A stretch of 32,000 nucleotides of DNA from the NCBI RefSeq assembly GCF_008065095.1, contig NZ_CP042911.1:8820001-8852000 (forward strand), in the 5' to 3' direction. The notes below the pieces were generated by a model. It saw nothing but the letters and a program-made list of their open reading frames with translations. It was not told the origin of the DNA and searched no databases. The position numbers and the translations under genes are program-made. This DNA is from Gemmata obscuriglobus. Its GTDB lineage: Bacteria > Planctomycetota > Planctomycetia > Gemmatales > Gemmataceae. Shown here in pieces: positions 4,455 to 32,000 of the stretch (its first letter is position 1; each line of letters begins with the position of its first letter).

Positions 4455-4580
4455 AGTTCTGCTCCACTACGTGCCGGAAGCGTGAGCGCAGGCGCGTGTG
4501 CGTGTGACCGAAAGAAGACCGCTACTCCCGCCGCGCGGACGTGTGCTGTCGCGCACGCATCCGGCTTATCGGGCCGCGAC

Positions 4581-5378: not shown

Positions 5379-5399
5379 GTGAACGGACTCCGGGGCGAC

Positions 5400-7727: not shown

Positions 7728-7806
7728 AGATTTTTGGCGCCCCTGCCCTCGCGGGCGGGGCGTCAGAGCGGCAACGAGCCCGGCCCGCGGGGCCGGCTCG
7801 CCGGGG

Positions 7807-8811: not shown

Positions 8812-9068
8812 GCGGGTGCGTACTTTCTTGCATGAAACGTGAGAACGGTCGGCGCGGTCGCAACGCCCGCGGCGCGCGCCTACGGGCAATTGTACCGGCG
8901 ATCGCACCGGGGCGCAGGAAATCCAGCCGCGTACAATGGGGGCAAGAAGACGAAGAACCTCATCCCCCGCTCCCGGCCCCTTCCCGTCCCGCCGGCCCGG
9001 TCAGCGGAGCTTCCGCGGGCCGGCGGAACGAGAGGGTGCCGGGGGAGAGGCTCTTCAGGAGACCGTTT

Positions 9069-9875
9069 ATGAGCGTTGTTCCCTCTCCGCGGCCGATCAC
9101 GGCCCCCGAGTTCCGCGCCGCGAAAGCCCGGGGCGCGAAGCTCGCGGTCGTGACCGCCTACGACTACACCTCGGCCCGGCTCTGCGACGAGGCCGGCGTC
9201 GACTGTATCCTCGTGGGCGACTCGGTGGGGATGGTGGTGCAGGGCCATCCGACCTCGCTCCCGGTCACGCTCGACGAGATGATCTACCACACCAAGTGCG
9301 TGATGCGGGGCGCCCGGCGGGCGCTGGTCGTCGCGGACCTCCCGTTCATGACGTACCAGGTGAGCCCGCGCCAGGCGGTCCGGAACGCCGGCCGGCTGAT
9401 GAAGGAGGCCGGCGCCCACGCGGTGAAGCTCGAGGGGGGCGTGCGGGCGCGCGACGCCATCCGCGCGTGCGTGGACGCGGGCATCCCGGTAATGGGACAC
9501 GTCGGGCTGACACCGCAATCGGTCCACCAGATGGGCGGGTTCAAGGTCCAGCGCGACACGGAGCAGCTCTTGGCGGACGCACTGGCGGTCGAAGCGGCGG
9601 GCGCGTTCTCGGTGGTCGTGGAAGGCGTGCCCGCGGACCTGGGCGCGAAGATCACGGGCACGGTCGGCATCCCCACCGTCGGGATCGGGGCCGGCGCCGG
9701 GTGCGACGGTCAGGTGCTGGTGTTCCACGACATGATGGGGCTGTACCCCGACTTCAAGCCGAAATTCGCGAAGCGGTACGCCGACCTGGGCGCGGCGATC
9801 AAGGCCGCGACGGAGCAGTACTGCCGCGAGGTCCGCGAGGGGGCGTTCCCGGCCGCGGAGCACACGTTCCGGTGA
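9069..9875 (+). CDS. panB: 3-methyl-2-oxobutanoate hydroxymethyltransferase
   Basis: From ATG 9069 it reads [88 protein letters not shown], which are classic PanB motifs. Confidence 0.9.
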
Positions 9876-9884
9876 GACACGTTA

Positions 9885-10826
9885 ATGCTCGTGTTGAAGG
9901 CCCCGGCCGGTTTTCGGTTGCGGTTCGACGAACTGGCGTTTGCCCCGGGCGGCGACGCGCTGGCCGCCGCCCCGAGCTGGGGTGTGACCCTCTGGACCAG
10001 CTTCGCCGACGGGGCACGGGCCGAGGCGGTGCCGCTGGGCGACGGGGTCGCGTCCCAGCGGCTGGCGTTCGCGCCGGACGGTCGCACCTTGTTCGCCGGT
10101 AGCGACCTGCTGTTGGCCGTCGATTTGGCCTCGCGGGTCATTCGGCGCGTGCCCCTCGACCGGTGGCACCGACTCGGGTTCGGCGTCTCACCGGACGGCG
10201 CGCGGCTGATCGTGTCCGAACGGCTCGGCGGCACCGTTGGTGGGGCCGAAGGCACCCGGCTGACGTGCCGACCGACCGACGACCTTGACCGGCCGACGTG
10301 GCAACTCATCACTCGGGCGGACGTTTTGCTGCCCCCCGTGTTCCCGCCCGGTAGCGACCGGTTCGTGCAACTGGAGAGCACGCACGAACTGATGGCCGAA
10401 CGGTGGGCGCCGCGGGTCGTCGTTCGGACGCTCGACACCGGTGCGGTGTTAACCGAAACCGATCTGCTCCCCGTGCCCGACTATCCGGACCAGGCCGCCC
10501 TTTCACCCGACGGGCTCACGCTGGTGGTTCGCCTACGCGATCGCATCTACGCCAACCTTATCGGCGCCGCGGGTGCGGCCGAGGTGATCGCGAACCCCAG
10601 TCGGAAGCACTTCACCGGTATCGCGTTTCACCCGTCGGGCCGTTACCTCGCGGCCACGAGTAACGACAAAACCGTCAAGCTCTACGACACCACCTCCTGG
10701 GACCTGACGAGAACCTTCACCTGGGACATCGGACGAGTGCGCTCGGTCGCGTTCTCGCCCGACGGCACGCTCGCCGCTGCGGGCAGCGACACCGGCAAGG
10801 TCGTGGTCTGGGACGTGGACCTCTGA
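9885..10826 (+). CDS. WD40 / beta-propeller repeat protein
   Basis: This is a 313-aa ORF. The C-terminal repeats are IAFHPSGRYLAATSNDKTVKLYD and VAFSPDGTLAAAGSDTGKVVVWD, and earlier segments are FAPDG/SPDG-type blades. Confidence 0.7.
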   Translation: MLVLKAPAGFRLRFDELAFAPGGDALAAAPSWGVTLWTSFADGARAEAVPLGDGVASQRLAFAPDGRTLFAGSDLLLAVDLASRVIRRVPLDRWHRLGFGVSPDGARLIVSERLGGTVGGAEGTRLTCRPTDDLDRPTWQLITRADVLLPPVFPPGSDRFVQLESTHELMAERWAPRVVVRTLDTGAVLTETDLLPVPDYPDQAALSPDGLTLVVRLRDRIYANLIGAAGAAEVIANPSRKHFTGIAFHPSGRYLAATSNDKTVKLYDTTSWDLTRTFTWDIGRVRSVAFSPDGTLAAAGSDTGKVVVWDVDL

Positions 10827-10910
10827 CCTGGTGCGCGTTCGAGAACGATGTTTACACGCACAGCCGTCGGAACTGAGCTTTGTCCGCAATAACGCGGCGT
10901 TTCGGCCCGC

Positions 10911-11486
10911 TCACTTCACCGGTCGCGATCCCGCGATGAGGATGTCCACGAGCCGCCGCGCACATTGCTGCCAGTCCGGGATGGCCGGCACGTGGGCCAC
11001 CCCCACGATCGCACTCAGCAGGTCGATCGGGTCCAGGTCCGTTCGAATGTCCCCGCTCTCCACCGCGCGCCGGACCAGGGACTGTATCGCGTCGTGGATC
11101 TGGGTGCGGGACGCCTCGACCACCTTGGGGTGGCACTGGACCAGCGTCGAGAGGGCCGGGGCGATGATCTTTTTGGCCGCGATGTAGTCCACGAACAGGA
11201 GCAGCCAGGATCGCAGCGCTTCGGGCGGTGAGAGCCTGAGAGCCAGTTCCTGCCCGGCCGAGGCGAGCTTCTCCACCTCCGTGCGGTACACGGCTTCGAG
11301 GAGCGCGTCCCGCGTCGGGAAGTGGCGGTACAGCGTTCCCGGGCCGACCCCCGCTTCCCGCGCGATCTCGTCCAGACTCGCCTCGGCCCCCGATTTGGTG
11401 AACGCCCCTTTCGCCACCTCAAGGATGCGCGCCCGGTTCCGCTCGGCGTCGGCCCGCGGTTTTCGCTTGGCCGGTGTCTTTGCCAT
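10911..11486 (-). CDS. TetR/AcrR-family transcriptional regulator
   Basis: The N-terminal HTH reads RARILEVAKGAFTKSGAEASLDEIAREAGVGPGTLYRHFPTRDALLEAV. Length is 191 aa. Confidence 0.9.
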   Translation of the reverse strand: MAKTPAKRKPRADAERNRARILEVAKGAFTKSGAEASLDEIAREAGVGPGTLYRHFPTRDALLEAVYRTEVEKLASAGQELALRLSPPEALRSWLLLFVDYIAAKKIIAPALSTLVQCHPKVVEASRTQIHDAIQSLVRRAVESGDIRTDLDPIDLLSAIVGVAHVPAIPDWQQCARRLVDILIAGSRPVK

Positions 11487-12941: not shown

Positions 12942-14120
12942 ATGCCTCACAGCCGGTTACTCGCCGCTCTCGTGGCGTGTGTGGCCCTCGGGCTCATCTC
13001 GGTGCCCGCCCCCGCTCCCGCCGGGGCCGCGCCGCCGGATGACAACAAGAAGAAGCAGCAAGAAATTGAAGCCACGGTCGCGAAGGGGCTTGAGTACCTC
13101 AAGAAAACCCAGGCGCAGGACGGCCACTGGGAGGCTCAGGGTGGGCAGTACCCGACCAGCATGACGGCGCTGGCCGGGATGGCGTTCCTGATGGAGGGGA
13201 GCACGCTGAAGGAAGGCAAGTACTCGGACCAGGTAAAGAAGGCGGTGGACTGGTTCCTGGCTCCGGCCCGGCAGCAGCCCAACGGCATGCTCGGCGACGT
13301 GCGCAACCCGAGCGAACAGGTCCGGTACATGTACGGCCAGGGGTTCGGCACCATGTTCCTGGCGAGCGTGTACGGCGAGGAGGAGGATAAGGAGCAGCGG
13401 GAGAAGCTGGAGAAGCTGCTCAAGAAAGCGGTCGAGTTCATCTGCAAAGCGCAGACCCTCAAGAAGCACCGCAAGGCCGAGGGGAAGGAGATGGACATCG
13501 GCGGGTGGGGGTACGTGAGCGCCGCCGAGGGCAACAACTTCGACGAGGGGTCCGTCACCATCACCGCGCTCCAAGGGCTCCGCGCCGCCCGCAACGCCGG
13601 CATCCCCGTGCCCAAAGAGAACATCGACAAAGCGGTCAACTACCTCGAAGCCTGTACCACGCCCGATGGCGGGATCATTTACAACTACCTCGGCGAGGGC
13701 GCGCTCCGGGGGCAGGAGCGCCCGCCCCTCACCGCGGCGGCGATCTGCTGCGGTTTCAGCGCCGGGCAGTACAAGAGCGAGCTGCCGAAGCGCTGGCTGA
13801 AGTACTGCAAGGCCCACGAGGAGACGTTCCTGGCAAAGGGCCGCCAGGCCCACGACGAGTACCAGACGTACTACTTCGGTCAAGCCATGTACGCCTTGGG
13901 GGACACCAAGTACGGCGCGATGTTTCCGGATCAGAAGGAGAAGGACAAGTGGCTCACCTGGAGCCGGTTCAAGGACGTGTATTTCCCGCAAATCCTCAAC
14001 AACCAGGACAAGTCGAGCGGCGCATGGGAACAGGGACAAGTCGGCCCCGTATACGTGACGAGCATTAACCTGTGCCTGCTCCAACTCGAAAAGGACCTTC
14101 TCCCCATCTACCAAAAGTGA
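12942..14120 (+). CDS. Secreted prenyltransferase/squalene-oxidase-repeat (alpha/alpha toroid) protein
   Basis: A signal peptide is present (MPHSRLLAALVACVALGLISVPAPAPAGA). Repeated QW-like segments occur (KTQAQDGHWE, GGWGY, TTPDGGIIY, DKSSGAWEQ). This family is abundant in planctomycetes. Confidence 0.65.
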   Translation: MPHSRLLAALVACVALGLISVPAPAPAGAAPPDDNKKKQQEIEATVAKGLEYLKKTQAQDGHWEAQGGQYPTSMTALAGMAFLMEGSTLKEGKYSDQVKKAVDWFLAPARQQPNGMLGDVRNPSEQVRYMYGQGFGTMFLASVYGEEEDKEQREKLEKLLKKAVEFICKAQTLKKHRKAEGKEMDIGGWGYVSAAEGNNFDEGSVTITALQGLRAARNAGIPVPKENIDKAVNYLEACTTPDGGIIYNYLGEGALRGQERPPLTAAAICCGFSAGQYKSELPKRWLKYCKAHEETFLAKGRQAHDEYQTYYFGQAMYALGDTKYGAMFPDQKEKDKWLTWSRFKDVYFPQILNNQDKSSGAWEQGQVGPVYVTSINLCLLQLEKDLLPIYQK

Positions 14121-19617: not shown

Positions 19618-20346
19618 ATGGATAAGATGCCGTGGTGGGGGTATGTGATTCTCGCCGGGCTGGCGTGGGGCACTTACGTCCCGATCATTTTCTACGGCGG
19701 GACCGAGCTGACCACCAAACCGGGCACGATGGGCGGGCGGCTCGCGTCCATCCTGTGCGTCGGCATCGCGTACTTCGTGATGGCGGTGGTGGTCCCGGTG
19801 CTGATGATGTCCCTCGGCGGCGATGCCACCAAGCCGGAATGGAAAACGAACGGGCTGATCTTCAGTGGCATCGCCGGGGTGATGGGCGCGGTCGGAGCCA
19901 TCTGCGTCATTTTCGCCAGCAACGGCGCGGTGAAGGCGGCGCAAACGGAACCCGGCTACATCGAAATCAAGACCAGAGCCGATACGGCGTCCGCGAAGCT
20001 GGAAGCCAACCCCGACGACGCGACTTCGCGGCAGGAACTCCAGGCCGCAAAAGAAGGCATGACCAAGTACGCGGCCCAGTACCGCATCTTGATTGCGCCG
20101 CTCATCTTCTCGCTGGCTCCGTTCATTAACACGGTTCTCAGTTTGGTGTGGCACCCGAAGCCGGGCGCGCCGTGGCACTTCGGGTTCGACATGCCGTCCT
20201 GGCACTTGCCGCTGGGCATCGTGCTGGTCGCCATCGGAACGTTCCTGGTGCTCTACTCCAAGGAAGCGGCCGAACTGGAGAAGGCGGCGAAGAAAGCGGC
20301 CGCTGCGCCCGCGAAACCGGCCGCAGCGCAGGCCAAACCCCAGTGA
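19618..20346 (+). CDS. Hypothetical integral membrane protein
   Basis: This is a 242-aa ORF with several hydrophobic helices (WGYVILAGLAWGTYVPIIFYG, ILCVGIAYFVMAVVVPVLMM, LIFSGIAGVMGAVGAICVIFA, LPLGIVLVAIGTFLVLY). It has an Ala/Lys/Pro-rich tail. Confidence 0.6.
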   Translation: MDKMPWWGYVILAGLAWGTYVPIIFYGGTELTTKPGTMGGRLASILCVGIAYFVMAVVVPVLMMSLGGDATKPEWKTNGLIFSGIAGVMGAVGAICVIFASNGAVKAAQTEPGYIEIKTRADTASAKLEANPDDATSRQELQAAKEGMTKYAAQYRILIAPLIFSLAPFINTVLSLVWHPKPGAPWHFGFDMPSWHLPLGIVLVAIGTFLVLYSKEAAELEKAAKKAAAAPAKPAAAQAKPQ

Positions 20347-20351
20347 CGTTC

Positions 20352-20801
20352 ATGAGCCCCGCCGAAGCCGTCAGCCGGTCGAACACGGTCCTCGCCCACG
20401 CCTGGATGGTTCGCACGTTCCTGAAGCACGCGGACGAGATCCAGGACAACGAGGACATGCTCGACGTTCCGCGGACGCTGTACGACAGCATCCGCGCCGT
20501 CGAGCCGGCGTTCCAGCGCGGCGACCACGCCGACTTCCTCCGCCGGCTCCGGGGCAAGTTGCCGAAGTTGCGCCGCGCGGCCTTGCACTTCAGTACGCAC
20601 TTCAGGGAGTTTTCTCCGCACACCAACTATGAAATGGCCGCAGCGAGCCTAATCGGGGTTGTGGGACACCTGGAAGAGATATTCGCCGCGGTCGACTGGA
20701 ACGAGGTCGCCGGGTTGGCCCAAACGAACGCCAATCACAAGACGGCCGAAGGCGCCCCCGCGACCGACCCGCTCGACGACATCGAGATTCCTGAAGTGTA
20801 A
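20352..20801 (+). CDS. Hypothetical protein, probably co-transcribed with the membrane protein
   Basis: ATG 20352 lies 5 bp after the upstream stop. The 149-aa non-repetitive sequence begins MSPAEAVSRSNTVLAHAWMVRTFLKHADEIQDNEDMLD... No family was recognised. Confidence 0.5.
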   Translation: MSPAEAVSRSNTVLAHAWMVRTFLKHADEIQDNEDMLDVPRTLYDSIRAVEPAFQRGDHADFLRRLRGKLPKLRRAALHFSTHFREFSPHTNYEMAAASLIGVVGHLEEIFAAVDWNEVAGLAQTNANHKTAEGAPATDPLDDIEIPEV

Positions 20802-20894
20802 CCTGCCGCCCCGAAATGCGAGCGAACGGCAGCAAGCGACAGGACCGATCCGCGCACCCTGTCATCAAAAAACAGCGGACGGCGATCCGGCAGT

Positions 20895-21884
20895 TTACGC
20901 CAATCGCAGCCGTTCACCGAGTCGCCGCAGCCCCTCTTCAACTGACACCTTGGGCTCATAACCGAGGTCCCGCCGGGCCGCACTAATGTCGTACCAGTGC
21001 GACGTGGACATCTGGTTCGCCACGAACCGCGTCATCGGCGGTTCGCCTGGAAGCCGGAACAACCAGTACACCGACTCCAGCACCCGCCCCGCCAGCCGCG
21101 CCTTCCACGCCGACACGCGAGCTGTGACCGGCGGCAATCCGGCTTCGGCCAAAATGCGGTCAACGAACGGCCACAACTCCACCGGTTCGCCGTTTGAGAT
21201 GAAGTACGCCTTCCCGGCTGGCGCGGTGCCGATGTCGAGCCGATCCGCGGCATCGAGTTGCGACTGCGCAGCGTTGTCGATGTACGTCACATCGACCTTG
21301 GCCGGTCGGTTGCCGATCCGCTTCAGTTTCCCGGCGCGAGCGGAGTCGATGATGCGCGGGATCAGGTGCGGGTCCCCCGGCCCGAAAATCAGGTGCGGCC
21401 GGAGCGACACCGTCGCGAGGTCCGAACCGTTCGCGGCCAACACGGCCTTCTCGGCTTTCGCCTTCGTCTCGGGGTACGCGGCGTCGAAGTGCTTCGGGTA
21501 CGGGAGCGACTCGTTCGCCCCCTCGTTGTCGCCGCCCGCGTGAACCACGCTCGGCGTCGAGGTGTATACGAGGCGCCGGACGCCATGCGTCTTGCACGCT
21601 GCGATCACGTTCTGCGTGCCCACAACGTTGGTGCTGTAGTAGGCCGAGTAGCGCCCCCACACGCCGGCCTTCGCCGCGACGTGGAACACCACATCGCAGC
21701 CGGACACCGCACGCTCGACCGACTCCAAGTCCGAGAGGTTGCCAAGTGACTGTTCGACGCCGAGTTCGTCGAGCCACGGGTACGCCGAGCGGGTGAACGA
21801 GCGGACGGAGTCGCCCCTTTGCCGAAGCAGCCGCACGACCGCCCCGCCGAGAAACCCGCCGCCGCCCGTAACGACCGCCTTCAC
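20895..21884 (-). CDS. oleD: OleD: NAD(P)H-dependent 2-alkyl-3-oxoalkanoate reductase (3-beta-HSD / extended SDR family)
   Basis: MKAVVTGGGGFLGGAVVRLL is a Rossmann GxxGxxG motif. The 3-beta-hydroxysteroid-dehydrogenase-like core is present (VVFHVAA, YSTNVVGTQNV, LVYTSTPSV, YPETKAKAE). The GTG start at 21882-21884 overlaps the oleC stop (GTGA). It is the last gene of the oleABCD synteny. Confidence 0.8.
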   Translation of the reverse strand: MKAVVTGGGGFLGGAVVRLLRQRGDSVRSFTRSAYPWLDELGVEQSLGNLSDLESVERAVSGCDVVFHVAAKAGVWGRYSAYYSTNVVGTQNVIAACKTHGVRRLVYTSTPSVVHAGGDNEGANESLPYPKHFDAAYPETKAKAEKAVLAANGSDLATVSLRPHLIFGPGDPHLIPRIIDSARAGKLKRIGNRPAKVDVTYIDNAAQSQLDAADRLDIGTAPAGKAYFISNGEPVELWPFVDRILAEAGLPPVTARVSAWKARLAGRVLESVYWLFRLPGEPPMTRFVANQMSTSHWYDISAARRDLGYEPKVSVEEGLRRLGERLRLA

Positions 21885-23659
21885 GCTTGTTCCCCGGGAC
21901 TCCAGTTCGGACCAAATAACTTATCGGCCTGCACCGCGAGCTTCTCGCGAAAGATCTTGGAGTTGTGCCGCACGTCCATCGGGAACTCCGGGTGCAGCAG
22001 GTACGTGACCACGCGGCGTGCTGCCGCAGAGCGCTGTCCAATACTAGACATGAGCCCGTCCAGCGCCGGACCGGACGGTCCCCCGACCGCGTCAAAGAGG
22101 GTGCTCCCCGGCTCGCTGCTACGGTCCAGTTCGACCCAGAGCACGGGGTACGTAATTCCGCGGCGAGTCACCCCCACCAGAGCCGTCCGGCGCACCCCCG
22201 GGACGGTATTAAAGATCGGCTCAACCATGTCGGTAAACAGTGTGCCGTGGGGCGTCACGACCCGGTGCGATTTGCGCCCACAGAACCAGAGCCGCCCTTG
22301 CGCGTCAAAATACCCGACGTCACCCATGCGGTGCAGAACTTCGCCGGTTTTCGGGTCGCGAATCTTCGCCAACTTGGTCGCGTCGGGGCGGTTGTAGTAC
22401 AGTTGCGTCACCACCGGCCCGCGGACCACGAACTCGCCCACCTCCCCCTGCGGCACGAGGAGCGAATCGTCCCACTCGGCGACCGGCTGGTCGCTGATGC
22501 GGATCACCCGCACCTCCACCCCCGGCACGGGCCGCCCGACGCACACGCCCTTACCTTGGTCGGTCAGGTGCCGCGTTTCGCCCAGGATCTCACGGCTACC
22601 GATGTTCGCAACCGGCAGCGCTTCGGTTGCCCCGTAAGGGGTGAACACCTCGACGCCGTCGGGAAGAAGGCGAACGAACCGCTCGAGTGACGCTGCTGAC
22701 GCCGGAGCCCCAGCGGAGATAACCCTTTTGAGCGTCTCAAGTCGGCGGGTCTCCGGTCCCGAGTCGGGGGCCGCACTGTTTTCTGACTTGGGACCGGAGA
22801 CCCGCCGACTTGGGACCGTTAATTCCCCCAACCGGCGGATCACGGCCGGCGAGCCGAACAGGCTCGTGACGCCGAACTGCTTGATTTGCGCCGCGGCCTT
22901 ATGAGGGTCGAGGCGGGCCGGGCGGCTCGCGTCCATGTCCGGGATCACGCACGTCATCCCGAGCGCCGGGCCGAACAACGCGAACAGCGGGAACGTACAG
23001 AGGTCGATCTCGCCCGGCGCGATGCCGTAGGTGGCCTTCAGCAGTTTCACTTGCGCGTCGAAGATGCCGTGGACGTACACCACCCCCTTCGCCACACCGG
23101 TGCTGCCGCTGGTGAACAGGACCGCCGCCGGCTCCGTCGCCTGCGAATCCGGCACCGGGTACGGCCCGCTCCCGCGCCCGGCCTTGCGCACCCGCGCGAG
23201 CGAGGTGTCGCAGAAGAACCGCCACCGGGACACGTTCACGGTGGCGCGAACGGTGCCCTTCGCCCACCCCAGCACGCGCCGCGCCGCGTGCGCCTTCGCG
23301 ACCCCGATGAACGCTTCCGGCCCGGCCTCCGCAAGGCACTTGCCGAGGTTCCTGACGCCCATTCCGGGGTCGATCAGCACCGGGACGGCGCCGACCTTGA
23401 AAAGAGCAAAGGTTAGGGCGAAGAAGTCCGGCGACGGCGGCACCATCAGGGCCGTGCGCGTGCCCCGGGCGACGCCCGCCGACGCGAGCCCGTGGGCGAT
23501 CGCGTCGGAGTCGGCGTTCAGCTCGCGGAAGGTGATCGCCCGGTGTTCGGTCGGGCCGTCGCGGCGCACCCGGCCGCGGGGCGCGTAAACCGCCACCTGC
23601 GTTGGGTGCTCCGCGGCCATCCGGACCAAATGCGAGGCGACGTTGAGGGAGGTGTTCAT
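21881..23659 (-). CDS. oleC: OleC: AMP-dependent synthetase family, beta-lactone synthetase
   Basis: This is a 592-aa ANL-superfamily protein (LFTSGSTGVAKGVVY, ISAGAPAS, FTPYGATEALP, HRMGDVGYFDAQGRLWFCGRK). It sits between oleB and oleD. Confidence 0.85.
   Translation of the reverse strand: MNTSLNVASHLVRMAAEHPTQVAVYAPRGRVRRDGPTEHRAITFRELNADSDAIAHGLASAGVARGTRTALMVPPSPDFFALTFALFKVGAVPVLIDPGMGVRNLGKCLAEAGPEAFIGVAKAHAARRVLGWAKGTVRATVNVSRWRFFCDTSLARVRKAGRGSGPYPVPDSQATEPAAVLFTSGSTGVAKGVVYVHGIFDAQVKLLKATYGIAPGEIDLCTFPLFALFGPALGMTCVIPDMDASRPARLDPHKAAAQIKQFGVTSLFGSPAVIRRLGELTVPSRRVSGPKSENSAAPDSGPETRRLETLKRVISAGAPASAASLERFVRLLPDGVEVFTPYGATEALPVANIGSREILGETRHLTDQGKGVCVGRPVPGVEVRVIRISDQPVAEWDDSLLVPQGEVGEFVVRGPVVTQLYYNRPDATKLAKIRDPKTGEVLHRMGDVGYFDAQGRLWFCGRKSHRVVTPHGTLFTDMVEPIFNTVPGVRRTALVGVTRRGITYPVLWVELDRSSEPGSTLFDAVGGPSGPALDGLMSSIGQRSAAARRVVTYLLHPEFPMDVRHNSKIFREKLAVQADKLFGPNWSPGEQA
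22738..22812. repeat. 75-bp palindromic element in frame inside oleC
   Basis: caagtcggcgggtctccggtccc (22738-22760) is the exact reverse complement of gggaccggagacccgccgacttg (22790-22812). Pairing extends inward 4-5 bp and outward 3 bp after a mismatch. The 75 bp equal 25 codons. Confidence 0.85.
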
Positions 23660-23672
23660 GTGGCGCCGCGGC

Positions 23673-24638
23673 TCAGGTCAGCGGGTGCCGCTGGAGGAAC
23701 TCCCACACCCGCGTGATCGCCAGTTCGCCCGCGTCGTCGAGCAGGTAGTGCCCGCAGTCGGGCCAGGTGTGAACTTCCGCGTGCGGGAAGTGCCGCTGCC
23801 ACTCTTCGAGGAAGTGGCGGTCGAACACGAAGTCCTTCATTCCCCACAGCAGCAAGGTCGGGGTGTCGCGGAACTTCTCCAGCGAGGCCGCGGCGCCGCT
23901 GACGATGTCGTAACCCGGATCGGACGGCGCCAGCGGGATCGTTTGCACGAATTTGAGCACCGCCACCCGGTGCGCCGGGGTGTCGTAAGGCGCGAGGTAG
24001 CCGGCCTTCACGTCCGCGGGGAGCGGGCGCTTCGTGGCACACCACTTCGCGGCGAACTTGCAGAACCAGTTGCGCCGGGTGATGAGCCACGCGCCGAGTT
24101 TGGTGTTCCGCCCGAGCCACAGCGACGGCGGCAGCTTCTTGCCCGCCGGCAGGGGGAACCCCCCGGTGTTCATCGCCACGATCCGCTTCACGCGCTCTGG
24201 ATGCCGAGCGGCGAACCCCATCCCGATCATTCCGCCCCAGTCGTGTACCACCAGCGTGAGGTCGCGCGTCAGCCCGCGTTCCTCAAGGAGCCACTCCAGA
24301 TCGTCGATGCGGCTTTTCAGGGAGTAGTCGTACCGGTCCGTTCCCGGTTTGTCGGAGAGCCCGCAGCCGATGTGGTCCGGAACGACGCAGCGGTACGACT
24401 CGCGCAGCGACAGCACGAGGTTGCGGTAGTAGAAGCCCCAGGTGGGGTTCCCGTGGAGCATCACGACCGTGTCGCCGCGGCCCTCGTCGAGGTACGCCAT
24501 CCGGAGCCCGCGCCGCGTCGCCACGCGCGAGACGAAGGGGAACAGCGGCATCGCCGGGTTCGGAAACGGCGGCCCGTCGTCATCCGGCAGGGCGTTCGTG
24601 CGGAGCTGGAGCGAAGCGGGGTCCGAGGTGTTGCTCAT
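23673..24638 (-). CDS. oleB: OleB: alpha/beta hydrolase (haloalkane-dehalogenase-like), beta-lactone decarboxylase
   Basis: Motifs are MAYLDEGRGDTVVMLHGNPTWGFYYR, PDHIGCGLSDKP, and LVVHDWGGMIGMG with the Asp nucleophile. Its stop lies 13 bp before the oleC start. Confidence 0.85.
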   Translation of the reverse strand: MSNTSDPASLQLRTNALPDDDGPPFPNPAMPLFPFVSRVATRRGLRMAYLDEGRGDTVVMLHGNPTWGFYYRNLVLSLRESYRCVVPDHIGCGLSDKPGTDRYDYSLKSRIDDLEWLLEERGLTRDLTLVVHDWGGMIGMGFAARHPERVKRIVAMNTGGFPLPAGKKLPPSLWLGRNTKLGAWLITRRNWFCKFAAKWCATKRPLPADVKAGYLAPYDTPAHRVAVLKFVQTIPLAPSDPGYDIVSGAAASLEKFRDTPTLLLWGMKDFVFDRHFLEEWQRHFPHAEVHTWPDCGHYLLDDAGELAITRVWEFLQRHPLT

Positions 24639-24794
24639 GAAGTTCGATTCGGCCGCGCGAACACGGCCGCAAGAGTTTTCCGGACCAACGAGCAGGTCGG
24701 GAACAATTCAGCTCAGTTCAGACGCAAGGCAGTTTTGACAGATCGGTAGGATGAACAGGCTTGAGAACGCAAAACAGAGCTTATCTCGTATCTG

Positions 24795-24821
24795 CGATCC
24801 TGTTCGTCCTGTCGATCCTGT
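24795..24821. repeat. Three tandem 9-bp repeats in the oleA-oleB spacer
   Basis: The units are cgatcctgt / tcgtcctgt / cgatcctgt. On the coding strand these read ACAGGATCG ACAGGACGA ACAGGATCG. Confidence 0.8.
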
Positions 24822-24924
24822 CAAAAACGGCTGCGAACAGCACTGGGCTGCCGATTCTCCGTCGAGTGCCCTAATCTTTTGGTTGTGCCGTATCGGGTCT
24901 CTCGGCTCGCCAACCGCCGGCGGC

Positions 24925-26082
24925 CTACCACTCCAGCCCGAGCATCAGGCAGTTCAGCCCGCTGCCGATGCCCAGGAAACCGACCCGGTCGCCCGGCCGG
25001 AGGAACTCCCGTTCCTCCGCAATGGCCGCGGTGATCGGCAGCGAGACGGTGCCAATGTTGCCCAGGTACTCGAACGTGCTGAAGTCCTTCTCCGGCGAAA
25101 CGCCGATCGCCCGCAGCACCGCGTCGCGGTGCCCGGCGCCCACTTGGTGACAAATCACCTTATCAAGGAAGTCCGGCCGCCAGCTCAGTTTCGTCAGGAA
25201 CTTCTGCCAGGTGCGGTGGCCGAGTTCGACGCCGTACTTCAGCACCTCGCCGGCGTGCGTCTCCATGAACGGAATCATCACGTGCCGCATCCCGAGGTCG
25301 ACGCCCTTCTGCACCAGCCCCGTGGCGTTGTCGACGCTCTTCTGCATCAGCCCCGCGGCGTTCGCTCCCAGGACCCGCTCCACGGTGCCGACCGCCGAGG
25401 GGAGCAGCGACTGGAGCCCCCACCGGCACAGGTTGTGGTACTGGGGCGCGTTCTGGGTCGCCCCGCCGAGCAGCTTCCGCCGCTTCTCGCGCGACAGCTC
25501 CGCGCTGACGACCAGCACCGCGACCGCCCCGGACCCGCCGGTGAGCGTCGCGATGCTCTCGCGGAACAGTTCGACCGACTTCGTCCGCACCATGCGGTCG
25601 ATCACGTTCTCGTTGATCTCCCGCGCCGTCTCCGCCGAAACCACGAGCCCCGCCTGCGCCTGTCCGAGTTCGATCTTGTTCGCGACCTCGACGATGCCGT
25701 TCAGCACGCCCAGGCACGCGTTGCTCAGGTCGAAGATCGCGGCGTTCGGGTTGATGTTCAGCTCGTGGGCCACGGCGCACGCGGTGGCCGGCTCGAAGTT
25801 CTCCCGGCACACGCCCGCGTAGATCAGCACGTCGATTTCCGACGCGGAGATGTCCGCCGCGGCCAGCGCTTTACGGCCCGCGGCGGCCGCGCCCTTCGAG
25901 AGCGGGTAGCCGGGCTCCCACCACCGGCGCTCGCTGATGCCCGTGAGCAGTTCCAACTGCCCCGGTGACATGTTCAGCGATTTGTACACCGGCGCGAGCC
26001 GCGCTTCGAGTTCCGCGGTGGAAACCACCACCGGCGGCAGCTCGTACCCGATCGCTTCGAGGTGAACGCGGTTGTATTTCAT
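24925..26082 (-). CDS. oleA: OleA: thiolase-superfamily (FabH-like) acyl-CoA head-to-head Claisen condensing enzyme
   Basis: This is a 385-aa FabH-like protein with active-site DLSNACLG (Cys codon at 25714-25716), CHQVGAGH and GNIGTVSLP. It is the first gene of the oleABCD order and starts 46 bp after the PKS stop. Confidence 0.85.
   Translation of the reverse strand: MKYNRVHLEAIGYELPPVVVSTAELEARLAPVYKSLNMSPGQLELLTGISERRWWEPGYPLSKGAAAAGRKALAAADISASEIDVLIYAGVCRENFEPATACAVAHELNINPNAAIFDLSNACLGVLNGIVEVANKIELGQAQAGLVVSAETAREINENVIDRMVRTKSVELFRESIATLTGGSGAVAVLVVSAELSREKRRKLLGGATQNAPQYHNLCRWGLQSLLPSAVGTVERVLGANAAGLMQKSVDNATGLVQKGVDLGMRHVMIPFMETHAGEVLKYGVELGHRTWQKFLTKLSWRPDFLDKVICHQVGAGHRDAVLRAIGVSPEKDFSTFEYLGNIGTVSLPITAAIAEEREFLRPGDRVGFLGIGSGLNCLMLGLEW
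25297..25362. repeat. 2 x 33-bp in-frame tandem duplication inside oleA
   Basis: Unit 1 is 25297-25329 (gtcgacgcccttctgcaccagccccgtggcgtt). Unit 2 is 25330-25362 (gtcgacgctcttctgcatcagccccgcggcgtt). They match at 30/33 positions and encode NAAGLMQKSVD / NATGLVQKGVD. Confidence 0.85.
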
Positions 26083-26128
26083 GCGCGGGTCGGCAAGGTG
26101 TCGCGGCCGTCGGGGCGAGTCCCGGCTG

Positions 26129-29100
26129 CTATTCTAGGGTGAAATCGGTCATCTGGTAGATAACCCGCCCGTCCACGGTCAGGAACCCGTTGGCGGTGAG
26201 CCGGTGATTATCGTCGTCCGCGGCGACGATTTCTAGCACAACCGTGACCTCGTGGTCCTTCGGCAGCACCTGCCCGCGGTACACCCACGTGTGCGGCACG
26301 TTTCGGGCCACCGTGTGCCACGGCTTCGCCGGCGCCCCCCACCGCTTCCACGCCGCGTACTTCAGCAACTGGAGGAACGACTCCAGCCCCAGCGACCCGG
26401 GCCACACCGGGTCCTGGTAGAAGTGCGCCTTGAAGAACCAGAACTCCGGATCGACCTTGATGGTCCCCACCAGGAGCCCGAGCCCCTTCGCGCCGCCGTC
26501 CGGGACGTACGCGGTGACCCGGTCCACCATGCGCAGCATCGCCCCGGGGAACGGCGGCTCGTGCGGGAGCGCGTCGCTCCTGGCTCGCACCAGCTCCTGC
26601 TCGTTGGGCCACGGCACCCGGGCTTCGCGGATGCCGACCTGGTTCGCCAGTGCCCCCTTCGTGAAGAACCCGAAGTAGGTGGTGCCCTTGTACATCGGCC
26701 CCTGAGCGTCCTCGACGAGCATGTCGTAGTGCTGAATGATCATGCCCGCAGAGTTCGACACGCCCGTCATCTTCACGGTGGTCGCGAGCGTCCCGGTGGC
26801 CGGCGTCACCGCGCGGAACTGGGTGCCCTTCCCGCCGAGGTTGCGGAAGCTCAGGTCGTCCTTGCTGGTGAGCGCCGACCCGCAGTACGCGGCGAGCCAC
26901 CCGCACGGCTGGAGGGCGATCTCCAACAGGACGCTGAACGGCATGTTCTCGCAGCGGTTCTCGCCGAAGTACCACTCGTCCGGCGGCACGGCGTAGAGGG
27001 CGGTGCAGCTCGCGCCGGCCTTCAGCACGAACGGCTCGCCGGACACGGCGGTCACGCAGTCGAGGAACTGGTACGGCGGCCCCGGCAGGCGAGCGAGCAC
27101 CCGCTCGGAGTCGAACACCTTGTAGGGCTCGCCGAACGCTTCGGACGGGTTGCCGTTCGAGTACGCCATGATTTTGGCGGAATCGTACAGCGGAGCGGCA
27201 GACAACCCACCCCCCGGCCCCCTCCCTGCAGGGAGGGGGAGAGAAGACACTTCCGAACCGGTTCGTGGACCGGATGGGGTTCGCACCGCGTCGGAACGCC
27301 CCGCTCCCTTCAAGGGAGTAGGTTCTGCCATCCCGGCCCAGATCACATTCAGCTTCTCGCGCGAGAGCCCCGACATGCGCAGCGTCATGTTGGTGATCTC
27401 GACGATCGGCTTGCCGTCCGCGTACATCAGCGCGTCGGCGACGCAGAACGGCTCCGGCCGGTAGCCCAGTTCCTTCACCGTCACCTCGTAGGTGACGGTC
27501 TTGGTCGTCGCGAGCACCTGCCCGCGGCACTTCAGCCGGCTGTTGACGCCCGGCAGCGGCTCGCACACCACGTCGTCGGCCTCGCCCACCCAGCCGAGGC
27601 GCATCAGCAGCACGCGGAGCGTGTGCAGGCAGCACTCGTACATGAGCGTCCCCGGCATCACTTGATCGTCCACGAAGTGACACGTCAGGAACCAGTCGTC
27701 CGGGTGAATGTCGAACTCGGCGCGCACGAAGCCGGTGCCGAACCGCCCGCCCGCGGGTTCGATCAGGGGCACACGGTCCACGAGCCGGAGCATCCCGCCG
27801 GGGATGGTGGCCGGTCGCGTCAGCCGCGCCCGGGCGAACGCCGGCCCGAACGCCCCCACGAGGTCGCCCCCGCGCAGGGCGTCCACCTGTTGCGCGGTCA
27901 GCGCGCACACCGTTTGGGGCACGAGGTCCGCCCAGTCGTCGGGCCTCTTGCCCGGGAACCGCTTCTTGTCGAGCGCGGTCTGAACGATCCCCTTACCGGC
28001 CGCGAGCGCATCCGCGGTGAAGAACCCGGCTACGCCGTTGCGCATCGTGATGAGGGGCTCGCCGTTGACCGTTCCGTCGAACCAGAAGTGGAACAGCCAG
28101 GAATCGCCCTGCTTCACGAACTTGTCGATGTGGATGTCGTAGGTCACCGTTTCGCCGACCTGCGGCAGCCCGCGGTGGAACGACACGACCGCGTCGAGCA
28201 GCCGGTACACGGCCAGCCCGCGGGTCTCGAAGTCGATGCCGAGGTACCCCGAGAGGAACAGGTCGGCCTGCCCCGCCTCGACGCAGATCGCGGTCGGGAT
28301 GCGGCCCGATTGCAGGTACCAGCGGTCCGCGCGGACGGTGTGGTGCGTCACCACGCGCCCGCTCGTCATCGACTTCGGCTCGCCCTCAATGAGGCTGATG
28401 CTGTCGACGAGTTGGAGCGGGCCGTCCGGCAACCGGACGCGGGTCGGGAAGGAATCGACCTCGGCGAACAGCGGCCCGAGCGCGTCGGCGATCTTGCCGG
28501 CCGCGTAGGTGCAGCACTGCTCGAAGGTCAGCGCGCGGGGCGGCTCCAGCGGGGACGCCGGAGGGGTCAGCCACACGAGCGACGAGACCGGTTCGCTCGC
28601 GCCCGCGCCTCCGCGCGTCCACGCATCGAGCAGCGAGGTTTGGAACCTCAGCACCCCGGCGGCAGACTCCATCAACTTGCCGCTGACACGCAGGAACGCC
28701 TCTTGCGCCTGCATGTTGAGCACCTGCACGTTTGCGACCGACTCAATGACCGGGGCAAGAGACGGCACCAGTTCCGGAGCGAGCACCGGAACGATGTGTG
28801 GGCTCGCCACCTCTTCGGGCTGAGCCGCCGGAGCGAGAGGTTGGCTCCGCAAGCGAACGTGAGGCTCGGGGGATGAACGAAGCGCCTCGGTGGGAGGAAC
28901 GTGTGGAGTCGGCTCCGGTGTGCCAGCGGCCACGACCGGCGCGACGCGCTCCTCCCCGTCCGTCTCGATCGGCACCGCGCTCGGCGCGGCTTCCCGCTTC
29001 GTGAGAGGTGTCAATACCACGGCCGGGGGCACCGGGCGCAACCCCACCGGCACCACAACCACGTTGCGCCGCGCCGGTTCGGGCTCCCGGTGCGCAACGC

Positions 29101-32000
29101 ACCGCGTTTCCGTACCGTACAGCGCGGCGAGATCGACCGGCAACCGCTCTGCCGCCAGGTGCGCCACGAGGCGAACGACCTGCGACACCGCGTCCGGCTT
29201 CGCGGCGTGGGCGGCCCGGGCCAGGTGCCGGCGGTCGCCCAGGATCGCCGAAATCATGCGGGTGCACGAGCCCCCCGGCCCCACTTCGACGAACGCGCGC
29301 ACCCCGTCGCGGTACGCCGCCTCGATCACCCGCGGCACGTCGATCAGCCCGACCAGCCCCGACGTGATCGAGTCCGCGCACGCCAGTTCGCCGGGCCGGT
29401 AGCTCTTGCCCCAGGCGCCGCTGTACACGGTCAGGGCGTGGGCCGGCGGCGTCACCGGCAGCATGTGCAGGTCGTGGTACGGCCCGAACACCGGCTTCCC
29501 GGCCTCGCAGTGCGCGAGCGTCACGCCCTCCAGAAGCATCACGGGCTTACCGACCGCCGCCGCGAGTTTCTCCACGTCGGCCCGCTTCCCACCGATCACG
29601 CACTCGCCCGGGGTGTTCACGATCAACAGGTACGCGAGCAGGCCCGGGCGCAGCGCCGCCGTCACGTCGTCGGCGCCGGCGGAAATCACGCCGCTGACCC
29701 AGTCCACCGGCTCACCGGCCGGAACGCCCCAGTACACCCGTGCGGAATCATACGGTGGGGCGAGGTCCGACGCGAACAGGGTCGAAACCTGCATCCGCCG
29801 GTACATTTCGTCGCGCTCGCGCCACAGACGCACCCCGAACAGGCCGGCCGACTCGCCGAGGCTCAGCCCGATCATCGCGTCGCAGCGGACGCCGAGCGCG
29901 GCCACAACGTCCGCCACCAGCGAGCCGACGGTCACCTGCCCGAACATCAGGTCTCGCGCCGGCGCGTCGCCCGCGCGCCCGTGCCAGAAGAACTGCGGGC
30001 TGAACTGGTCCCGCAGGCGCTGGTTCTCGGCGTCCTGTCGGCGCACCACTTCGGGCCACTGGGCGGCGAGGTCACGGCCCATGCCGTCGAACTGGTTCCC
30101 GGACCCGGGGAACACGAGCGCGACCTTCGCCCGCGTCCCGAGCGGCTTCGGGCTGTAGAACACGCGGTCCCGGAGCGCCTGGCGGGCCGTCGCCGGGAAG
30201 GGGCTGGCGGGGTCCGCGTGGAGCGACGATGCGGCGAACGAGATCTGTTCGGCGAGTTCCGCCCCTGAGCGCGCCGCGAACCCGACCGCCAGCTTCCGCC
30301 CGGCCCCCGGCGCCGCCCGGAACCACCCCCGGGCGACGGCCTCAACGTTGCGCCCGGCCCGGTCGTGCGCGAACGCCGACAGGGCCTCAATGCCCGCGAG
30401 CAGTTCGGCCGGCGTGTCGCCCTCGACCACGAACGCCGCTTCCGCCCGCGCGCCGAGCGGCTGCGCGAGTTCGGCCGGAACCCGCTGCGCGGGCTCCTCC
30501 AGCAGGAAAGCGAAGTGCGACCCGTCTGCGCCGGACGAGTGCACGCACGCGCGCCGCGGCCCGTCGGCCCGGTTCCGTAACCAGAACGTCGGCTCCTGGG
30601 GGCCGCGGGCGCCCCGGCCGCCGGGCGCCTCGATCAAAGAACCGGCCACGCCCCCCGGGAGCACTTCTTGATACAGCGCGACGCACGCCTCCAGAACCGC
30701 CACCGCCCCCGACGCGGCACCCGCCTCACCGACCCGCTCGGCCGTCCCCCCGAACACGACCGCCGACCCGAGCGGCAGCCCGGCATCGGCCGCGGCGCGA
30801 GATTGTGCGTCCCCCTCGGTCGATGCGACCCCAACTCCCTTAATAACGGCGTACACGCGGTCGCCGTCGCGCTCGGCGTCGGCGAGGCGTTTCAGCACGA
30901 GCGCGACCGCGCCGTCGGCCGGGAGCGACGCCTCGCCCGGGAGCACCAGCCGCGGGTCGCCGGCCAGGTCCACCCCGCCCACCAGAACGCGGTCCAACTC
31001 TCTGGCCTGGAGGGCACGAACCCCCAGTTCCAGCGCCCGAGCCCCGGAGCCCTCTTCGCTGCAAACCGTGTGGCTCGGCCCGCCGAAATGGAACGTCCGC
31101 GCGACGCGGCTCGCGGCGATGCTCCCGAGCGCGCCCATCGTCCGGTTCGCCGTCAGCGGCGGGGACGCTTCGTCGGGGCCGGCACCGCTCCCGATCGCGG
31201 CCCAGCGCAGGTGGAAGTTGGTGGTGTTCAGGTCCAACCCGAGCCCGACGAACACGCCGGTCGCGGGGTCACCGTCGGCGCGGGGGGCGTACCCCGCGTC
31301 GGCGAGCGCGTCCGCGGCCACGCGCAGCATCAGCAACTGCTGCGGCAGCGTCTCCTCCAGTTCCTTGGGCGGCACGCGGAACTTGTCGATGGGCAGCGCC
31401 AGCTCGTCGATGTAAAACCCGGGCGGGCACGGCTCGTCCGCCAGCGCCCAGCCGTTCAGTTTGATACCGGGCTCGGCCGTCCCCCCGCTGAACAACTGCT
31501 CTTGCAGCGCCCGGGCGTCGGCCCACGGCCCCACGTGCGCCGCCGCCCCCACCACCGCGACCGGCTCGCGGGGTTCGCTGGCGCGCGACCGGGCGGCCGC
31601 CTCGCGCGTTCCGACCGCGATGAGGCGCGGCGTTTTGCTCGCGCCCGAGCGCGGCGGCAGACCGGTCCACTCCTCGACGAGCAGGTGCGCGTTCACCCCG
31701 CCGAACCCGAACCCGCTCACCGCCGCCCGGCGCGGTTGGGTGGCGGACGAACGCCCCCAGCGCTCGGCGGCACGCAGCACCCGGAACGGCCCGCCGTCGT
31801 AGCTCAGCCCCGGCGCCGGGGTCGCGAAGTTCGCCTGCGGTGGGAGCTGCTCGTGCTTCATCGCGAGCAGCACTTTGGTCAGCGCCGCGGCGCCGGCCCC
31901 GGTGAGCAGGTGCCCCACCGTCGACTTCACCGAACCGATCACGCACTGCCCGGGCGCCCAGTCGGAACCGCCCCACAGTTCCCGCAGGCTGTCGAACTCG
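26129..32000 (-). CDS. PfaC/Pfa3-like polyunsaturated fatty acid synthase subunit: KS (C-terminal part visible), CLF, AT and two FabA-like DH domains; the 5' end lies beyond the window
   Basis: The frame stays open to base 32000 (..EFDSLRELWGGSDWAPGQC-VIGSVKSTVGHLLTGAGAA is the KS C-terminus). The CLF has no active-site Cys (GGPSHTVCSEEGSGARAL). The AT has FPGSGNQ and GLSLGE (29852-29869). The FabA-type DH motifs are CHFVDDQVMPG (His codon 27677-27679) and AHFYQDPVWPGSLGLE (His codon 26423-26425). Confidence 0.9.
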   Translation of the reverse strand, partial: EFDSLRELWGGSDWAPGQCVIGSVKSTVGHLLTGAGAAALTKVLLAMKHEQLPPQANFATPAPGLSYDGGPFRVLRAAERWGRSSATQPRRAAVSGFGFGGVNAHLLVEEWTGLPPRSGASKTPRLIAVGTREAAARSRASEPREPVAVVGAAAHVGPWADARALQEQLFSGGTAEPGIKLNGWALADEPCPPGFYIDELALPIDKFRVPPKELEETLPQQLLMLRVAADALADAGYAPRADGDPATGVFVGLGLDLNTTNFHLRWAAIGSGAGPDEASPPLTANRTMGALGSIAASRVARTFHFGGPSHTVCSEEGSGARALELGVRALQARELDRVLVGGVDLAGDPRLVLPGEASLPADGAVALVLKRLADAERDGDRVYAVIKGVGVASTEGDAQSRAAADAGLPLGSAVVFGGTAERVGEAGAASGAVAVLEACVALYQEVLPGGVAGSLIEAPGGRGARGPQEPTFWLRNRADGPRRACVHSSGADGSHFAFLLEEPAQRVPAELAQPLGARAEAAFVVEGDTPAELLAGIEALSAFAHDRAGRNVEAVARGWFRAAPGAGRKLAVGFAARSGAELAEQISFAASSLHADPASPFPATARQALRDRVFYSPKPLGTRAKVALVFPGSGNQFDGMGRDLAAQWPEVVRRQDAENQRLRDQFSPQFFWHGRAGDAPARDLMFGQVTVGSLVADVVAALGVRCDAMIGLSLGESAGLFGVRLWRERDEMYRRMQVSTLFASDLAPPYDSARVYWGVPAGEPVDWVSGVISAGADDVTAALRPGLLAYLLIVNTPGECVIGGKRADVEKLAAAVGKPVMLLEGVTLAHCEAGKPVFGPYHDLHMLPVTPPAHALTVYSGAWGKSYRPGELACADSITSGLVGLIDVPRVIEAAYRDGVRAFVEVGPGGSCTRMISAILGDRRHLARAAHAAKPDAVSQVVRLVAHLAAERLPVDLAALYGTETRCVAHREPEPARRNVVVVPVGLRPVPPAVVLTPLTKREAAPSAVPIETDGEERVAPVVAAGTPEPTPHVPPTEALRSSPEPHVRLRSQPLAPAAQPEEVASPHIVPVLAPELVPSLAPVIESVANVQVLNMQAQEAFLRVSGKLMESAAGVLRFQTSLLDAWTRGGAGASEPVSSLVWLTPPASPLEPPRALTFEQCCTYAAGKIADALGPLFAEVDSFPTRVRLPDGPLQLVDSISLIEGEPKSMTSGRVVTHHTVRADRWYLQSGRIPTAICVEAGQADLFLSGYLGIDFETRGLAVYRLLDAVVSFHRGLPQVGETVTYDIHIDKFVKQGDSWLFHFWFDGTVNGEPLITMRNGVAGFFTADALAAGKGIVQTALDKKRFPGKRPDDWADLVPQTVCALTAQQVDALRGGDLVGAFGPAFARARLTRPATIPGGMLRLVDRVPLIEPAGGRFGTGFVRAEFDIHPDDWFLTCHFVDDQVMPGTLMYECCLHTLRVLLMRLGWVGEADDVVCEPLPGVNSRLKCRGQVLATTKTVTYEVTVKELGYRPEPFCVADALMYADGKPIVEITNMTLRMSGLSREKLNVIWAGMAEPTPLKGAGRSDAVRTPSGPRTGSEVSSLPLPAGRGPGGGLSAAPLYDSAKIMAYSNGNPSEAFGEPYKVFDSERVLARLPGPPYQFLDCVTAVSGEPFVLKAGASCTALYAVPPDEWYFGENRCENMPFSVLLEIALQPCGWLAAYCGSALTSKDDLSFRNLGGKGTQFRAVTPATGTLATTVKMTGVSNSAGMIIQHYDMLVEDAQGPMYKGTTYFGFFTKGALANQVGIREARVPWPNEQELVRARSDALPHEPPFPGAMLRMVDRVTAYVPDGGAKGLGLLVGTIKVDPEFWFFKAHFYQDPVWPGSLGLESFLQLLKYAAWKRWGAPAKPWHTVARNVPHTWVYRGQVLPKDHEVTVVLEIVAADDDNHRLTANGFLTVDGRVIYQMTDFTLE
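27201..27325. repeat. Hairpin-pair element in frame in the linker between the two DH regions of the PfaC-like gene; related to the rnr element
   Basis: It contains the perfect 22-bp palindrome ccccctccctgcagggaggggg (27218-27239). It also contains the 12-bp palindrome cgaaccggttcg (27254-27265) and the hairpin ctcccttcaagggag near 27304-27318. The ends resemble the rnr element arms. It encodes EPTPLKGAGRS...SSLPLPAGRGPGGG. Boundaries are approximate. Confidence 0.6.

Follow-up and report, generated by a model that had tools for sequence, protein, structure and literature searches.

A seven-gene pfaD-pfaA-pfaBC-oleABCD cluster predicted to make hentriacontanonaene in Gemmata obscuriglobus

In Shewanella, the pfa genes for a polyunsaturated fatty acid (PUFA) synthase and the oleABCD genes for olefin synthesis occupy unlinked loci. 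In the 32,000-nucleotide (nt) stretch of the Gemmata obscuriglobus genome analysed here (part of contig NZ_CP042911.1, hereafter the window), five successive minus-strand open reading frames (ORFs) encode a Pfa synthase subunit, OleA, OleB, OleC and OleD. We conclude that this segment is very probably the 3' two-thirds of a co-directional cluster of seven genes, in the order pfaD-pfaA-pfaBC-oleA-oleB-oleC-oleD, that makes the neutral lipid hentriacontanonaene (n-C31:9).

The closest description of such a system is that of Shulse & Allen (2011), in whose supplement G. obscuriglobus UQM 2246 is entered with three consecutive proteins that have the domain sets enoyl reductase (ER), ketosynthase-malonyl-CoA acyltransferase-two acyl carrier proteins-ketoreductase (KS-MAT-ACP2-KR) and ketosynthase-chain length factor-acyltransferase-two dehydratases (KS-CLF-AT-DH2), assigned together to "Type I" (PMC3098273). 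In Type I clusters pfaB and pfaC form a fused pfaBC, and Geobacter bemidjiensis, also a Type I carrier, makes hentriacontanonaene (PMC3098273). The same authors proposed that the Type I cluster feeds olefin synthesis, and they described ole genes as 'often' linked to such clusters (PMC3098273). Theirs is apparently the same locus as ours, with the same domain sets and the same olefin-precursor proposal. The linkage to ole genes was treated there in general terms, whereas the junctions in Gemmata are described here; there is otherwise no substantive difference. The gene set, its proposed link to the ole genes and the product in G. obscuriglobus are already published. In the present analysis we establish the identities of the genes, the intactness of their catalytic motifs, and the order of the genes together with its conservation, and we thereby add to the earlier work the exact junctions, a check of the motifs, and a count of how often the gene order is kept in the Gemmatales.

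Genes of the pfa-ole cluster

The five frames (Table 1) have GC contents at third codon positions of 0.84-0.92, in a genome of ~67% GC, and are therefore supported as real genes; a reading of the motifs found the catalytic residues intact in all five proteins. The OleA of the window is encoded, residue for residue, on CP025958.1 and ABGO01000103.1, which we take to be sequences of G. obscuriglobus DSM 5831 and UQM 2246. On one strand, and in the order A-B-C-D, oleA stands together with genes for a haloalkane dehalogenase-like hydrolase, an AMP-forming ligase and a short-chain dehydrogenase/reductase (SDR), as expected of an oleABCD set.

Table 1. Features of the pfa-ole segment and its 3' flank, with predicted products (positions are those of the window)
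Feature	Position	Strand	Basis or remark
PfaBC, C-terminal 1956 aa (KS1 tail-CLF-AT-DH-DH)	26129..32000	(-)	ORF without upstream stop, continues past the window
oleA, thiolase-fold head-to-head Claisen condensing enzyme, 385 aa	24925..26082	(-)	NF006720, PDB matches, catalytic residues
oleA-oleB intergenic spacer, 286 nt	24639..24924	(-)	imperfect inverted repeat, arms 24741-24759 and 24799-24817
oleB, haloalkane-dehalogenase-like alpha/beta hydrolase (beta-lactone decarboxylase), 321 aa	23673..24638	(-)	Abhydrolase_1, motifs, position
oleC, AMP-forming beta-lactone synthetase, 592 aa	21881..23659	(-)	NF006754, adenylation motifs
oleD, NADPH-dependent 2-alkyl-3-oxoalkanoate reductase (extended SDR), 329 aa	20895..21884	(-)	NF042422, 3Beta_HSD, motifs
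weak terminator-like hairpin and T-run, 6 nt past the oleD stop	20876..20889	(-)	consensus match only
two ORFs downstream of oleD, convergent with the cluster	19618-20346 and 20343-20801	(+)	no Pfam family

The genes follow one another closely. The synthase ends in a TAG codon at 26131-26129, and oleA begins with the ATG at 26082, leaving a gap of 46 nt. Between the end of oleA (24925) and the ATG of oleB (24638) lies the spacer of 286 nt, and the oleB ORF holds no earlier start codon. Only 13 nt separate the end of oleB (23673) from the start of oleC (23659), and the stop codon of oleC and the GTG start of oleD share the letters GTGA at 21884-21881, an overlap of 4 nt. A preliminary description of this DNA, made from the sequence alone, had given the coordinates, the strand and all four of these junctions exactly. 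It was also correct in ending the synthase at 26129 and in the domain order KS-CLF-AT-DH-DH, but the ORF leaves the window at 32000, so that most of the first KS lies outside.

Read from a matching public contig, the full PfaBC has 2283 aa and an intact first KS, and the window fragment is identical to the C-terminus of the protein at L001:3103-9954. Pfam matches comprise two ketoacyl-synt and two FabA domains. The top PDB matches include 6riw (E=3e-95), presumably the KS-CLF didomain of Moritella PfaC. The active KS carries Cys183 in DAACASS, and in an alignment made by eye the CLF has Glu at the position of the KS catalytic cysteine. The AT is divergent and retains GLSLG, with Ser1040, and an FPGSGNQ motif; NCBIfam places a PfaB-family/FabD-like AT at residues 949-1246 of the full-length protein. 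A Pro/Ala-rich linker separates the AT from the two FabA-like DH domains, both of which retain His motifs of the HFxxDxVxPG type. Domain searches found no C-terminal 1-acylglycerol-3-phosphate acyltransferase (AGPAT) in PfaBC, which stops 3 residues past the second DH. The preliminary description had noted this absence and taken it as a sign of delivery to OleA. The absence holds, but it does not discriminate between destinations, because canonical PfaC (KS-CLF-DH2) is equally without AGPAT and yet supplies PUFA to phospholipid (PMC3098273).

Directly upstream of PfaBC, CP025958.1 and ABGO01000103.1 encode a 2238-aa KS-AT-ACP-KR-DH protein, a homologue of PfaA. In Gemmata algarum, whose PfaBC is 96% identical to that of the window, the genes for PfaD (552 aa), PfaA (2241 aa), PfaBC, OleA, OleB, OleC and OleD follow in this order on one strand. 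PfaD, the enoyl reductase, reaches 632 bits with TIGR02814 (cut-off 449), and PfaA 1320 bits with TIGR02813 (cut-off 1010), with two PP-binding (carrier-protein) stretches. The Type I gene set of Shulse & Allen (ER, KS-MAT-ACPn-KR and KS-CLF-AT-DH2 in one cluster) is present in full. The preliminary description had pointed past position 32000 for the other pfa genes; PfaA does lie directly upstream, and PfaD is in place in G. algarum, but a phosphopantetheinyl transferase (PPTase) was not among the genes of the flanks examined. The gene before pfaD in G. algarum (L087, 306-962) encodes a protein with the TIGR02996 domain 'rpt_mate_G_obs', a model name that points to G. obscuriglobus, and this suggests that pfaD forms the 5' boundary of the cluster.

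With 460 bits against NF006720, OleA lies above the curated family cut-off of 285. Its best PDB matches (E ~1e-52), which we take to be Xanthomonas OleA structures, are followed by a next group, of FabH type, at ~1e-17. The catalytic set, consisting of Glu97 (FEPATA), Cys123 (NACL), His312 (CHQVG) and Asn342 (GNIG), is invariant in an alignment of 14 sequences. By these sequence features the oleA product is a head-to-head condensing OleA, predicted to form a 2-alkyl-3-oxo acid from a pair of long acyl thioesters. Compared with Xanthomonas OleA and with the NCBIfam model, the Gemmata protein has an insertion of ~50 residues at ~228-279, the length of which is variable among relatives. We considered this insertion as a marker of pfa linkage and rejected it: OleA has ~345 aa at one pfa-linked locus (L078) and ~383 aa at a locus that is not pfa-linked (L057).

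For OleB, Abhydrolase_1 matches with E=3e-32, PDB haloalkane dehalogenases with E ~1e-36, and haloalkane dehalogenase models with 157 bits, under their cut-off; there is no OleB-specific model among its family matches. The protein has the expected fold, the nucleophile Asp133 in HDWGG and the C-terminal base His297, and the place of its gene between oleA and oleC is conserved in relatives. OleC passes the broader model NF006754 (697 bits, cut-off 478), its best specific matches are two models of olefin beta-lactone synthetases, NF045786 and NF045785, one of which is OlefBLtnSynXan, and it retains the adenylation motifs TSGSTGVAKG, YGATE and GDVGYFD. OleD matches NF042422 better than the next unrelated family by ~300 bits and 3Beta_HSD with E=1.5e-53, and it has a TGGGGFLG Rossmann motif and the pair Tyr137-x3-Lys141.

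An in-frame inverted repeat lies within oleC at 22734-22816 (codons ~282-309). Its 32-nt arms are 94% complementary, and its RNA fold has a computed energy of -62.8 kcal/mol (z = -8.5). The repeat sits in a hypervariable loop between the conserved motifs RRLGEL and LKRVISAGAP and is shared with G. algarum; at the same site, the insertions of other Gemmata lineages are unrelated and differ in length. It looks like an in-frame palindromic insertion, of which there is no second copy in the window. An Rfam scan of 20000-32000 returned nothing at gathering score. Matches of miRNA models at 22737-22814 reflect the long hairpin only, and a match of the M23 model inside oleA (32.8 against 41.2) was taken as chance.

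Conservation of gene order in planctomycetes

To the locus in the window we compared those of other genomes, using an OleA alignment to scan species-representative genomes. This found 430 relatives, and we retained the top 80 loci, almost all of them from Gemmataceae or related planctomycetes, with OleA identities of 56-99%. Gemmata sp. JC717 and G. algarum JC673 (99% OleA identity) were the nearest named relatives found. Synteny was examined by tblastn with six Gemmata proteins, and loci were counted for upstream genes where the flank was at least 1.5 kb and for downstream genes where it was at least 6 kb.

This comparison, which the preliminary description had called for, found PfaBC and OleA on one strand, with PfaBC as the immediate upstream neighbour, in 64/68 planctomycete loci, with a median gap of ~59 nt. 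A further locus (L015) missed the adjacency filter as just the N-terminal part of its PfaBC match passed. Downstream, OleB comes after OleA in 47/48 loci, and OleC and OleD are present as well, giving a complete oleBCD set, in 36/48.

Proposed route to hentriacontanonaene

By homology with Shewanella, a three-part iterative Pfa synthase, made up of PfaA (KS-MAT-ACP2-KR-DH), PfaBC (KS-CLF-AT-DH-DH) and PfaD (ER), would build a 16:4(n-3) acyl chain on the carrier domains of PfaA. OleA would then join two 16:4 chains head-to-head to give a 2-alkenyl-3-oxo acid, OleD would reduce this product with NADPH, OleC would use ATP to close a beta-lactone, and OleB would decarboxylate the lactone, which would leave the central cis double bond of C31:9. 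This product fits two 16:4 chains because 16+16-1 gives 31 carbons and 4+4+1 gives nine double bonds. We infer by analogy that in Gemmata the precursor comes from the synthase of the cluster and is taken over by OleA directly from the ACP. In Escherichia coli, OleA forms a 31:8 ketone from Pfa-derived chains even without an acyl-CoA synthetase, and direct action of OleA on ACP-bound 16:4 has been proposed (Allemann et al. 2019, PMC6463001). By this analogy with Shewanella and E. coli (PMC6463001), the hand-off from Pfa to OleA may be channelled, as the preliminary description had envisaged.

The lipids of the organism agree with such a route. In G. obscuriglobus DSM 5831, n-C31:9 makes up 8.9% of the lipids and is the only hydrocarbon reported (Kulichevskaya et al. 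2012, PMC3327967). The preliminary description was correct in naming C31 polyenes as lipids of planctomycetes. The fatty-acid table for G. obscuriglobus lists saturated and monounsaturated acids, mainly C16-C20, together with omega-OH-C24:0, and no PUFA (PMC3327967). Nine double bonds are not derivable from the listed acids, and no PUFA pool is seen, which fits a synthase dedicated to the hydrocarbon. The claim of a pfa-to-olefin pathway ending in a C31 polyene, as made in the preliminary description, is thus supported by the adjoining pfa genes, by the conserved gene order, by the measured n-C31:9 in the absence of listed PUFA, and by the proposal of Shulse & Allen.

Several observations weigh against this account. 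Three loci (L057, L080 and L083) have no PfaBC match upstream of oleA; at L057, purK and an ABC transporter stand there in place of PfaBC. Eleven loci have pfaBC-oleA-oleB only (L028, L030, L035, L036, L039, L043, which is from Limnoglobus roseus, L044, L048, L054, L061 and L062), with neither oleC nor oleD beside oleAB in the 9-10 kb covered downstream. In several of these eleven Gemmataceae loci pfaA is also upstream. Because the prevailing pfaBC-oleA adjacency has to be set against these three and eleven loci, we regard pfa-ole linkage as a strong and old feature of the Gemmatales that is not obligatory. Within the cluster, the embedded AT gives weak matches (PfaB-family model TIGR02816 41 bits, cut-off 144; Pfam Acyl_transf_1 only E=0.025), OleC falls below the equivalog cut-offs of its two specific models (649 bits with OlefBLtnSynXan and 612 bits with the other, against 900 and 850), and OleD reaches 439 bits with NF042422, below the equivalog cut-off of 580. 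In our own reading, the low scores of OleC and OleD would reflect divergence from models named for Xanthomonas and Shewanella and would not be evidence against the assignments. Searches of the 32-kb window and of the 3 kb preceding G. algarum pfaD gave no PPTase gene (pfaE). The published Gemmata listing is likewise without one (PMC3098273), and the cognate enzyme is presumably encoded elsewhere in the genome. Nor did we find a PfaT-type or hot-dog thioesterase in the window or the flanks examined, or between or beside the Gemmata genes. The 286-nt spacer could have room for an internal or second promoter. Finally, the literature that we searched contained no genetic or biochemical test of the pathway in Gemmata.

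Could the two halves of the cluster be adjacent and yet serve separate functions? The product of the Pfa-like synthase would then be another secondary lipid, for instance a long-chain hydroxy fatty acid or a PUFA of the membranes, and OleABCD would condense acyl-CoAs from the type II fatty acid synthase, as in Xanthomonas. Shulse & Allen leave room for a stand-alone product of the pfa homologues (PMC3098273), planctomycetes contain unusual long-chain hydroxy fatty acids, as the omega-OH-C24:0 of the G. obscuriglobus table illustrates (PMC3327967), and the link between pfa and ole is not present in every genome. We nevertheless judge this alternative to be highly improbable, given that C31:9 is the sole reported hydrocarbon, that its nine double bonds could not come from the listed acids, among which there is no PUFA, and that pfaBC is kept next to oleA, with short gaps, over OleA identities of 56-99%. 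A different question is whether a single pathway is transcribed as two operons, pfaD-pfaA-pfaBC-oleA and oleBCD, with an internal promoter or a regulatory hairpin in the spacer between them. The 46-nt, 13-nt and overlapping junctions are consistent with co-transcription. The spacer itself is long and relatively AT-rich for the genome, and it holds a TTGACA hexamer in addition to its inverted repeat, all of which would suit a second operon. Among relatives the distance between oleA and oleB varies from 2 to 1644 nt, and in the complete genome of L. roseus an opposite-strand DUF1559 gene separates the two. Against this, many relatives have oleA-oleB gaps of just 2-20 nt, as co-transcription would predict, and a scan for consensus sites found no promoter or terminator in the 46-nt or the 286-nt gap; as the scan does not model planctomycete promoters, it does not settle the operon structure. 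On balance we consider a division into two operons rather unlikely.

As to the spacer, its computed fold is slightly more stable than those of shuffled sequences (z = -2.98), and it has no Rfam match in the scan of 20000-32000. The 286-nt form is confined to G. obscuriglobus and G. algarum; the corresponding spacers in other Gemmata are ~75-180 nt long and unrelated in sequence. We considered its inverted repeat as a dispersed repeat element, but there is no second copy within the window.

Within the preferred account, in which the seven genes form one pathway to C31:9, we offer a further suggestion that is speculative and that we would give somewhat less than even chances. In the Gemmatales, the Type I synthase may be devoted to 16:4 and play no part in membrane PUFA, and its product would pass straight from the carrier domains of PfaA to OleA, neither a thioesterase nor a CoA intermediate being involved. 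This transfer could be mediated by the fused AT in PfaBC or by lineage-specific features of OleA, for example the insertion at 228-279, and in the genomes with pfaD-A-BC-oleA-oleB only, the regulation or the routing of the late steps may be different.

A cluster of this kind would explain where planctomycetes obtain their C31:9 polyene, a neutral lipid that taxonomists regularly record as a signature of the group. The cluster would also be a compact natural case of a PUFA-type synthase that apparently serves hydrocarbon production only. Possible uses lie in the engineering of long-chain polyolefins and in the interpretation of C31:9 as a biomarker.

Flanking genes and comparison with described systems

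On the 3' side, the hairpin and T-run at 20889-20876 are the probable end of the transcription unit. The two convergent ORFs beyond it were left out of the cluster because they match no Pfam family. Farther away, the region 3552-11486 holds housekeeping and regulatory genes unrelated to the cluster, encoding an orotidine monophosphate (OMP) decarboxylase, an alpha/beta hydrolase, an RNase R-like RNB protein, an HD/OB-fold protein, a ketopantoate hydroxymethyltransferase, a WD40 protein and a TetR regulator. Near the window start, a plus-strand ORF at 504-1250, situated among overlapping ORFs, has an IS1595/ISXO2-like DDE transposase domain and may be a degraded insertion sequence. At 12942-14120, also on the plus strand, a 392-aa protein gives a weak match to the squalene-hopene-cyclase C-terminal / prenyltransferase alpha-alpha-toroid fold, and its gene sits in a stretch of unusually high AT skew (0.28 at 13001-14000).

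Among described systems, the myxobacterial Pfa3 (KS-CLF-AT-DH2-AGPAT) and the 'Type L' clusters resemble Gemmata both in the KS-CLF-AT-DH-DH core and in having the ER gene first. Unlike them, the Gemmata PfaBC has no C-terminal acyltransferase, and for this reason we do not count it as a member of either. Linkage of pfa and ole genes is in itself not unusual, as the word 'often' in Shulse & Allen implies and as Photobacterium profundum SS9 exemplifies, whose chromosome has the pfa operon next to the ole operon, as in Gemmata (PMC6463001). SS9 is unlike Gemmata in having a PfaT thioesterase gene between the operons, and it has no detectable C31:9 (PMC6463001). The pfaABCDE and oleABCD genes of Shewanella oneidensis and S. 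pealeana offer the same chemistry, with C31:9 formed from two Pfa-derived 16:4 chains and OleA linking the two pathways (PMC6463001). The Shewanella synthase is split into PfaA, PfaB (AT), PfaC (KS-CLF-DH2), PfaD and PfaE, and some strains also make eicosapentaenoic acid (PMC6463001). Gemmata differs in that its AT is an internal, fused part of PfaBC, its ACPs number two, its pfa and ole genes are contiguous, and no PUFA is reported for it.

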